From Raillietiella orientalis (lineage: Eukaryota), in assembly GCA_036172245.1 (NCBI GenBank), contig JAYWIR010000003.1, forward strand, positions 6,944,001-7,008,000: a stretch of DNA of 64,000 bases, written 5' to 3'. Both the position numbers and the translations under genes were made by a program. The notes under the pieces were generated by a model. The model was not told the DNA's origin. It ran no database searches and was given only the letters and a program-made list of their open reading frames with translations. Positions 18,140 through 19,375 of the stretch are shown here, one piece after another. Each line of letters starts with the position of its first letter. Within the stretch, counting starts at the first letter, position 1.

Positions 18140-18247
18140 CTATGCAAGCGAGCCAAAGACTGTTCGACAACCTCTTTTGTTCTACCAGATCTGTTTCTCG
18201 TCCCCCCTGCTCCAATCGATGAATCCTGGGTAGCGGCAATGACACTC
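18140..18247 (-). pseudogene. hemA: 5-aminolevulinate synthase, second fragment (after the LINE insertion), truncated
   Basis: [35 protein letters not shown] corresponds to ALAS GAGGTRNISGT. Confidence 0.88.
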
Positions 18248-19177
18248 CCGTTTGCCCAAGTCCCACAAGGGGTGGGGCGAAATTTATTTTCTTTTATCAT
18301 TCACTCTACATATTCATGCATTCGTTTTCTCCAATCATTCCACTTACGTCACCTGGAAGTCTGCTTCGTGGGATCATCGCTGGGGTTCACTACACTTGGG
18401 GAGCTGGGCGTCGTTCATGCTTGGACGTCGTCCTCGGTCCTTCTCAGGATATGTCGGTAGTTCCAGGCCTGTACTCTTCCACAGTTTCTTATGCCGATCT
18501 CCTTCTGGATAAGCCCTTTCGGGATTTCCATCGGAGATACGGCGGTGCTGGTGGTCTTCATCTTCCACCACCGCACATGGATGGCGGTGATGAAGAGGGC
18601 GATGGTCGTCCTTACCATGGGATTGTAACAGGGAACGTTCCCATTTCCTTGGAACACGCTTGCTAAAATTCCCATGGTCGATGTGGTGGGCAGTCCGATA
18701 GCCCTTTTGAGGGGGTGCCACTCTTGTTGCATAGTGGGACGTGTATCCTTGTCTCCACATGCTTTGCAGGCCTCATCTTCTCTTCTTCCCGTGAATCGCT
18801 TCATGGACGTCCCGCACAGGATTCCTCCAGGATAAAACATCAGGGGGTTATCCTGTGAATCCAGTGACAAGTCACTCTTCCAGAGCGTCGTTCCGATCGC
18901 CAACAGGTTTATCCCAGCACTCCCGTGGCGATCGGCGGCTTCTTGGAGGGCACTGGTGTCTTGGTCCTCTTCGACCATTGGTCGGCATAGGTTTCTCTTT
19001 GTTACCCTGGACCACACGAAGTTGTGTTGTGGTTTTCCCACGCTTCGCGGGTCCTGTGGGTGAATCTTCCAGCTATCCTGTCAATGCATCGGAGTACTCA
19101 GGAGTGGTGAAGGTACTCTCCTCGTCTCCATGCTTCAGCTGCTTGCAAGGTAACCCTGGACCGCTGGTGGATCCAGT
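18248..19177 (-). mobile_element. 5'-truncated non-LTR retrotransposon (L1/Tx1-like 3' end) inserted in hemA, 17-bp TSD
   Basis: TAGCGGCAATGACACTC at both 18231-18247 and 19178-19194; ORF 18415-19041 with CKACGDKDT and later WWK; AATAAA on the minus strand at 18283-18288. Confidence 0.8.
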
Positions 19178-19375
19178 TAGCGGCAATGACACTCTCATTT
19201 CGTGACATTCCTAAGTAGTTATTACTGCACCAGACGATGACTTCTCTATGTCTTCCATAGCCCATAATATAGGGAAGCCTTCCAGGCAACGACGCAAAGC
19301 GTGTGAATTCACGATGGCTCCCTTCTTCTTTTATACCTTTGATTTTTCTTCGTAGAATATTTCTTTGTAGTCTAC
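19178..19375 (-). pseudogene. hemA: 5-aminolevulinate synthase, N-terminal fragment (alphaproteobacterial type)
   Basis: VDYKEIF/[frameshift]/[56 protein letters not shown]; WCSNxYLGM motif; no intron or mitochondrial presequence. Confidence 0.9.

Follow-up and report, generated by a model that had tools for sequence, protein, structure and literature searches.

A stretch of 64,000 nucleotides from Raillietiella orientalis (assembly GCA_036172245.1, contig JAYWIR010000003.1, positions 6,944,001 to 7,008,000 of the forward strand), referred to here as the window, contains a fragment of hemA, the bacterial-type gene for 5-aminolevulinate synthase (ALAS), that is split by 930 bp of other DNA. 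This insert is bracketed by a perfect 17-bp repeat, which is a true target-site duplication (TSD) of a site that bacteria carry without interruption, and it is non-bacterial as far as our sequence comparisons reach. We propose with moderate confidence that the insert is the 5'-truncated tail of a host non-long-terminal-repeat (non-LTR) retrotransposon of the long interspersed nuclear element (LINE) type, which would have been integrated by target-primed reverse transcription (TPRT) after the bacterial DNA had been transferred to the nucleus.

The target-site duplication and the interrupted hemA fragment

The 17-mer TAGCGGCAATGACACTC was present at exactly two sites of the window, both on the plus strand (18231-18247 and 19178-19194), and no further site was detected in the window when up to two mismatches were allowed. 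In 100 dinucleotide shuffles, two or more matches to the 17-mer were never obtained. The two copies, which a preliminary description of this DNA had reported as a perfect repeat, are indeed exact and are separated by 930 bp (18248-19177). When the insert and one 17-bp copy were excised in silico, hemA could be read continuously on the minus strand, in agreement with the same description. Copy 1 has bacterial hemA sequence as its left neighbour and the insert as its right neighbour; copy 2 is preceded by the insert and followed by hemA.

The two flanks, with 18107-18247 as the left query and the sequence from 19178 onward as the right query, were aligned at the DNA level with the hemA loci of five related bacterial genomes. 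In all five loci the left and right alignments overlapped by exactly 17 bp, as in locus L022 where they covered positions 1365-1517 and 1501-1744, and the two TSD copies aligned to the same 17 bp. The site alignment further revealed that copy 1 had retained the bacterial left neighbour and copy 2 the bacterial right neighbour. Since the flanks overlap by exactly the length of the repeat in every bacterial hemA compared, the repeat is a true TSD at a site that the bacteria have without interruption. Both copies also have the G in CAATGACACTC that is specific to the window, the five bacterial loci having A or T at this position. Similarity between the two junctions was absent past the 17 bp, as the observed local score was reached by 89 of 500 shuffles upstream and by 396 of 500 downstream, and the repeat is therefore a clean TSD rather than part of a larger duplication. 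DNA transposons and LTR elements generate short duplications of fixed length, 2-11 bp, and 17 bp falls outside this range; it lies within the variable range of TSDs left by TPRT. The variable and long duplication by which a non-LTR (LINE) insertion through TPRT is recognized was thus found here.

The interrupted gene is bacterial-type hemA, as had been described before, but it is a fragment of approximately 114 codons and not the whole gene. Its N-terminal part lies on the minus strand at 19195-19382, up to the duplicated site, and shows 77-87% nucleotide identity to bacterial hemA. Residues ~79-114 follow at 18107-18230, also on the minus strand, with two 2-codon deletions, and the ALAS similarity stops within this piece. 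In a tblastn search with a full-length bacterial ALAS (locus L001), residues 19-78 aligned to 19358-19179 and residues 68-114 to 18264-18136, so that the similarity runs out at about residue 114 (window ~18136). Each flank separately matched an ALAS chain in the PDB, the upstream part 7x98 (E 4.7e-5) and the downstream part 5qqq (E 0.014), and the NCBIfam model TIGR01821 matched the fragment at E 4.6e-4 with 19 bits against a cut-off of 338. Compared with bacterial ALAS (alphaproteobacterial hemA; TIGR01821; PDB 7x98 and 2bwn), residues ~1-114 are collinear after excision, whereas only the N-terminal quarter is kept, the two deletions are present, and a stop codon (TAA at 19385-19383) occupies the expected start region. 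A functional hemA encodes a full-length pyridoxal phosphate enzyme of ~400 residues. Considering that the rest of the enzyme beyond residue ~114 is missing, the fragment cannot be functional.

In a protein search against 301 genomes of the bacterial order to which genome G001 belongs, 264 genomes gave a match, with a tight group at 73-80% identity over 61 residues; this group is a clade of small Anaplasmataceae genomes, to which the DNA identity is 71-87%. When the window fragment was compared with six bacterial hemA genes, differences were counted at 15-17 of 142 first and second codon positions and, among the 69 third positions, at 21-26, whereas the bacterial genes differed among themselves at 1-9 of ~214-240 first and second positions. 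Judged from these substitution counts, the excess of changes at first and second positions is the relaxed constraint expected for a pseudogene. The downstream hemA piece (18107-18247) is more diverged from bacteria, at 71-81% identity and with its two 2-codon deletions, than the upstream piece (19178-19424) at 77-87%, a contrast that may be noise between short pieces.

Features and probable origin of the 930-bp insert

The insert (18248-19177) differs from the island of bacterial-type DNA around it in base composition, with a GC content of 0.53 versus 0.39-0.41. Its trinucleotide profile correlated with that of the island at r -0.07, versus 0.39-0.57 with the high-GC blocks that lie on either side of the island. 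Along its whole length the minus strand is A-rich and T-poor, and this strand is most likely the sense strand. It carries a 221-codon open frame at 18418-19080, which contains a CxxC motif (CKAC, residues 105-108, 18768-18757) and is closed by TGA at 18417-18415. A putative 3' untranslated tail of 167 nt follows (18414-18248). AATAAA occurs only once, on the minus strand at 18288-18283; from there, 35 nt remain to the minus-strand 3' end of the insert, which reads …GGGCAAACGG. The CxxC remnant and the 3' AATAAA that had been pointed out in the preliminary description are thus both in place. The frame may represent the C-terminal zinc-binding region of a LINE open reading frame 2 (ORF2).

No bacterial counterpart of the insert was found. 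It matched none of five genomes in one search and none of 98 genomes of the donor family in another, and genome G001, of the same family, gave a match at chance level only (E 0.889). Searches of 72,556 plasmids and 50,697 phage records were likewise without a match, and Rfam, including its group II intron and hammerhead models, returned nothing at E ≤ 0.1 over 12-24 kb. Pfam detected no transposase domain in the region of the insert, nor were any terminal inverted repeats reported there. The insert therefore does not match a bacterial insertion sequence (IS) or group II intron, a match that would have contradicted the idea of a host element, and as far as tested by composition and by similarity it is non-bacterial.

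At the protein level, a positive indication came from the ESM Atlas, in which the clusters nearest to the 221-codon frame scored 0.95 and had 177-181 of 256 features in common with it. These clusters are labelled 'putative tick transposon' or zf-RVT, the zinc-binding domain of reverse transcriptases (PF13966 in 64-74% of members), and clusters of this kind made up 22 of the 30 Atlas matches, including all ten best. The match is the sole protein-level hint of a retroelement and is best read as a lead. Like 5'-truncated LINE insertions, the insert has a long TSD of non-fixed length, comprises only a 3' portion of ~0.9 kb, is A-rich on its presumed sense strand, and presents a CxxC-bearing, apparently C-terminal frame followed by a short untranslated region (UTR), to which the Atlas match to zf-RVT clusters can be added. 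Because the 17-bp TSD, the strand asymmetry, the layout of frame plus short UTR and the Atlas lead point in the same direction, we favour the tail of a non-LTR retroelement. Its identity as a retroelement, the sense orientation on the minus strand and the 5' truncation would follow from this combination.

Several results weigh against a LINE tail. Unlike typical LINE insertions, the insert has neither a poly(A) stretch nor a simple repeat at either end, the longest run of A being 4, so that the 3' poly(A) or short tandem repeat expected of a LINE is missing. The fold of the putative 3' tail is ordinary (z -1.01). The 221-codon frame is closed 97 nt before the 5' end of the element. Out of 2000 first-order Markov simulations of the insert, 74 contained a frame at least this long, as did 24.5% of the 930-bp windows taken from the adjacent high-GC DNA; the frame alone is therefore not strong evidence. 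Pfam searches of the insert frames and their sub-segments at E ≤ 10 gave no reverse transcriptase, endonuclease or zf-RVT domain. With the 221-codon frame as query, no match was obtained in word-based protein searches that covered near and longer lengths, nor in the PDB, and an exhaustive phmmer search of 1.84 billion representative proteins yielded two matches only. Both were rejected as repeat-inflated and unrelated, one being an RCC1/Big_7 protein and the other a repeat protein (BLASTP E per repeat 0.026 and 2e-5). The AlphaFold single-sequence model of the frame was unusable, with a mean predicted local distance difference test (pLDDT) score of 31. The Atlas scores themselves have to be read against a calibration in which ~1 in 100 shuffled proteins reaches 0.95 or more, which makes them a lead and not a proof. 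In addition, no second or diverged copy of the insert was found in the window at the DNA or protein level, and scans of metagenomes with the frame and with a degenerate pattern of the CxxC region, as well as scans of viral contigs, gave no match. The linkage of the island to a eukaryotic gene, described below, is known from the assembly only. A 5'-truncated LINE copy need not contain a reverse transcriptase, and some LINE clades have no poly(A) or tandem-repeat tail. Of the earlier interpretation, the TSD and the non-bacterial nature of the insert are upheld, whereas a retrotransposon is the probable reading of it, with HMMER, Pfam and PDB searches negative for reverse transcriptase or endonuclease and no poly(A) tail.

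The same chemistry could have acted on another template, and the insert would then be a retrocopy that LINE machinery made from a cellular transcript of the host instead of a transposon, with a non-coding RNA or the 3' portion of an mRNA as its source. Such an origin would account for the 17-bp TSD, the position of AATAAA 35 nt from the 3' end together with a frame ending 167 nt upstream, which resembles the 3' end of an mRNA, the lack of detectable reverse transcriptase or endonuclease similarity and the single copy in the window. In common with processed pseudogenes, the insert has a TSD of this length, AATAAA near its 3' end and no introns. In contrast with them, it has no poly(A) after the signal, although the identical TSD copies point to a young insertion, and no parent gene or parent protein family could be identified, as the frame found no homologue among the 1.84 billion representatives. 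The Atlas also points to zf-RVT clusters and not to a cellular family. We consider a retrocopy unlikely.

Similarly improbable is an origin without reverse transcription, in which a staggered break took up a piece of DNA, from the host or from elsewhere, and had its 17-nt overhangs filled in, or in which an unknown DNA element with a long TSD was inserted. The absence of any retroelement hallmark except the TSD, and of poly(A) in particular, would suit such a capture, and the composition of the insert resembles that of the adjacent high-GC non-coding DNA (r 0.39-0.57, as given above). No microhomology between the insert ends and the target was seen. Against a captured fragment or DNA element, however, stand the missing transposase domain and the lack of reported terminal inverted repeats, and no source copy is present in the window. 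Long and clean fill-in duplications are uncommon. Moreover, the strand asymmetry of the whole insert and the Atlas lead fit a transcribed retroelement better.

In the case of a bacterial mobile element, such as an IS, a miniature inverted-repeat transposable element (MITE) or a group II intron, the insert would have been acquired in a living bacterium before the transfer. Mobile and repeated DNA is abundant in the donor genomes, where short repeats reach dozens of copies, and hemA is otherwise bacterial. Nevertheless, the null searches of donor-family genomes, plasmids and phages, the lack of a transposase domain, inverted ends or an Rfam intron model, and a GC content of 0.53 against ~0.40 leave this origin very improbable and largely refuted. 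A 17-bp duplication is also atypical for IS elements. By element type, an IS or MITE was rejected since inverted ends, a transposase and bacterial copies were all not found, and a group II intron since Rfam gave no match and no reverse transcriptase domain was present. A Penelope-like element was also rejected, with no Pfam match to the GIY-YIG endonuclease and no Rfam hammerhead. Finally, a chimeric join of bacterial contamination to host DNA can be dismissed as scarcely credible: the window is an extreme compositional mosaic whose structure is known from one assembly, but such a join would not produce an exact 17-bp duplication where all five bacterial genes have the site only once, and the stops, deletions and substitutions under relaxed constraint are unlike those of a living contaminant.

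The bacterial island and the order of events

The hemA fragment belongs to a low-GC island at ~17.23-20.40 kb that is a patchwork of pieces lying far apart in donor-type genomes. Six island segments are 70-91% identical to small genomes of the bacterial family that includes G001. Judged from these alignments, the island is scrambled and pseudogenised Wolbachia-like (Anaplasmataceae) DNA, with ~2.2 kb of such sequence in at least six pieces within 17.38-20.38 kb. The match is at the level of the family, and the donor genus would probably be Wolbachia. The 5' DNA of hemA was matched by 58 of the 98 family genomes, with a best identity of 87%.

From left to right, the first piece (17382-17956, plus strand) derives from an HK97-type prohead protease locus at a different place in the donor genome and comprises the C-terminal part of the gene and downstream DNA. 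The Pfam model PF04586 (E 2.5e-4) and the NCBIfam model TIGR01543 (E 3.9e-7) both matched this piece, which is 75% identical to genome G284 and carries an in-frame TAG at 17467-17469; the identity of the corresponding donor gene as a prohead protease was confirmed. A short piece from a third donor locus follows at 17983-18103, with 70-72% identity to G236 and G284. Next comes hemA with its upstream DNA (18107-18247 and 19178-19424/19466, 71-87% identity), and then two short repeats that are multi-copy in donor-type genomes, at 19617-19710 and 19734-19890; genomes G284, G209 and G236 contain dozens of them, with identities of 77-91%. In the donors, the first repeat kind is ~57 bp long and up to 91% identical, and the second is ~145-160 bp long and 77-84% identical. 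Their translations gave no NCBIfam palindromic-element match, and an assignment to rickettsial palindromic elements was rejected. A donor-like multi-copy fragment at 20116-20375 (72-79% identity) forms the right end of the island. The right part also contains a 31-nt direct repeat with 90% identity between copies 175 bp apart (19830-19860 and 20005-20035). Outside the island, a second donor-matching fragment was observed at ~46909-47250, ~26 kb away within high-GC DNA, with 66% identity to G284 and G277.

The island has the DNA-level similarity to an endosymbiont lineage by which nuclear Wolbachia transfers (nuwts) and other lateral gene transfers are recognized, and it combines lost bacterial gene integrity with linkage to a host gene, the latter being given by the assembly alone. 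A scrambled and pseudogenised island in one window with a KAT6-type gene agrees with a nuclear transfer followed by the insertion, and it lends support to the earlier proposal that the bacterial DNA was already nuclear when the element arrived. If the element is eukaryotic, the transfer must have preceded the insertion.

In the sequence of events that we propose, a small amount of Wolbachia-like DNA from different donor loci would have entered an invertebrate nuclear chromosome and decayed there. After the transfer, the 930-bp element would have inserted into what was left of hemA, 114 codons, with a duplication of 17 bp of the target. Host LINE-type machinery would have made staggered nicks 17 bp apart, and reverse transcription would have started from the 3' end of the element and halted early, so that only the last 930 nt were copied. 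With the minus strand of the window as the sense strand of the element, the copied part would consist of 97 nt out of frame, a 221-codon C-terminal region of ORF2 with a CxxC zinc-knuckle-like motif, and a 3' UTR of 167 nt. The two TSD copies are identical, whereas ~2.7 differences would be expected between them were the insertion as old as the transfer, and the probability of observing none is then ~0.07. Taking the ~8% excess at first and second codon positions as neutral divergence after the transfer, this estimate gives a weak indication that most of the decay of the island probably preceded the insertion.

The present case is a further instance of a known phenomenon, and a tidy one, as bacterial genomes show the empty site directly. 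Cases of this kind were reportedly described by Dunning Hotopp et al. (2007) and Nikoh et al. (2008). Host retrotransposons within Wolbachia nuclear inserts have been documented, for example in Drosophila ananassae (PMC4299567). As in those nuwts, decayed Wolbachia-like DNA in an animal chromosome appears to have been interrupted after the transfer by non-bacterial mobile DNA. Unlike the D. ananassae nuwt, which is near-genome-sized, the transfer here is tiny (~2.2 kb) and scrambled, and the element has no match to a known retrotransposon family. Since such insertions have already been reported, existing knowledge is not changed by this one. A eukaryote-style TSD within DNA of bacterial derivation is nonetheless good internal evidence for a chromosomal location and against contamination. 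It also gives a relative order, from transfer to decay to insertion, which is useful for the curation of this assembly and for the dating of the transfer. Novelty might lie only in the unclassifiable insert and in the large amount of domain-free, high-GC DNA around it.

The KAT6-type gene and the high-GC surroundings

The eukaryotic gene of the window is a KAT6/MOZ-type histone acetyltransferase gene at 3480-10901 on the plus strand, with SAMD1-like WH, H15, MYST zinc finger and MOZ_SAS domains, and the island lies ~6.5 kb downstream of it. Its MYST core matched human KAT6A at E ~1e-89 with ~78% identity, and its WH1 domain with ~47% identity only, both counted from the alignment; this divergence would suggest a non-vertebrate animal as the host. 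The gene is compact, and its last exon spans 1099 codons; when proteins of 604-1924 residues were searched for relatives of this long exon, none reached E ≤ 1e-10. The KAT6 region has a GC content of 0.32-0.41 and is depleted of CpG, with an observed/expected ratio of 0.45. The ratio was 0.73-0.96, that is, not depleted, in the island, the insert and the high-GC blocks, the latter at 0.81-0.96.

The high-GC blocks, at 11.7-17.2 kb and 20.4-64 kb, flank the island and amount to ~48 kb with 52-69% GC. This large domain-poor portion contrasts sharply with the neighbouring AT-rich and CpG-poor KAT6 gene. The blocks did not resemble donor genomes except at ~46909-47250, in a comparison that left 40350-44000 outside. 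None of 300 open frames of at least 90 codons in the high-GC DNA contained a Pfam domain, 36 of the 336 frames (those at 57.3-64 kb) being outside these sweeps; some of the longer ones among them were covered by another Pfam scan, which likewise gave no domain in the blocks. In the whole window, no Rfam family reached its gathering score and no tRNA was detected. It is conceivable, though doubtful, that the insert represents the tail of a TPRT retroelement lineage with recent activity that lacks poly(A) and has no protein relatives detectable with HMMER, and that this lineage is part of the high-GC, domain-free DNA. If so, the window would give a sample of a repeat compartment, so far uncharacterised, in an invertebrate genome that has been poorly sampled; the bacterial fragment would have served as a neutral and datable landing pad.

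Several repeats were observed in the high-GC DNA. A unit of 600-690 bp occurs in three diverged copies (~65-66% identity) at 15585-16247, 16399-17063 and 37367-37960, and the first two form an inverted pair directly to the left of the bacterial island. An insertion of the island into such a unit was considered and rejected, as the diverged copy at 37.4-38.0 kb has no continuation into the right flank. Direct repeats of ~420 bp with 88% identity lie at 56623-57042 and 58535-58938, and others of ~230-250 bp with 81% identity at 24022-24248 and 26083-26332. Just within the right high-GC block, there are a run of G at 20460-20472 and a purine-rich (GA) tandem array at 21256-21412 with periods of 25-64.

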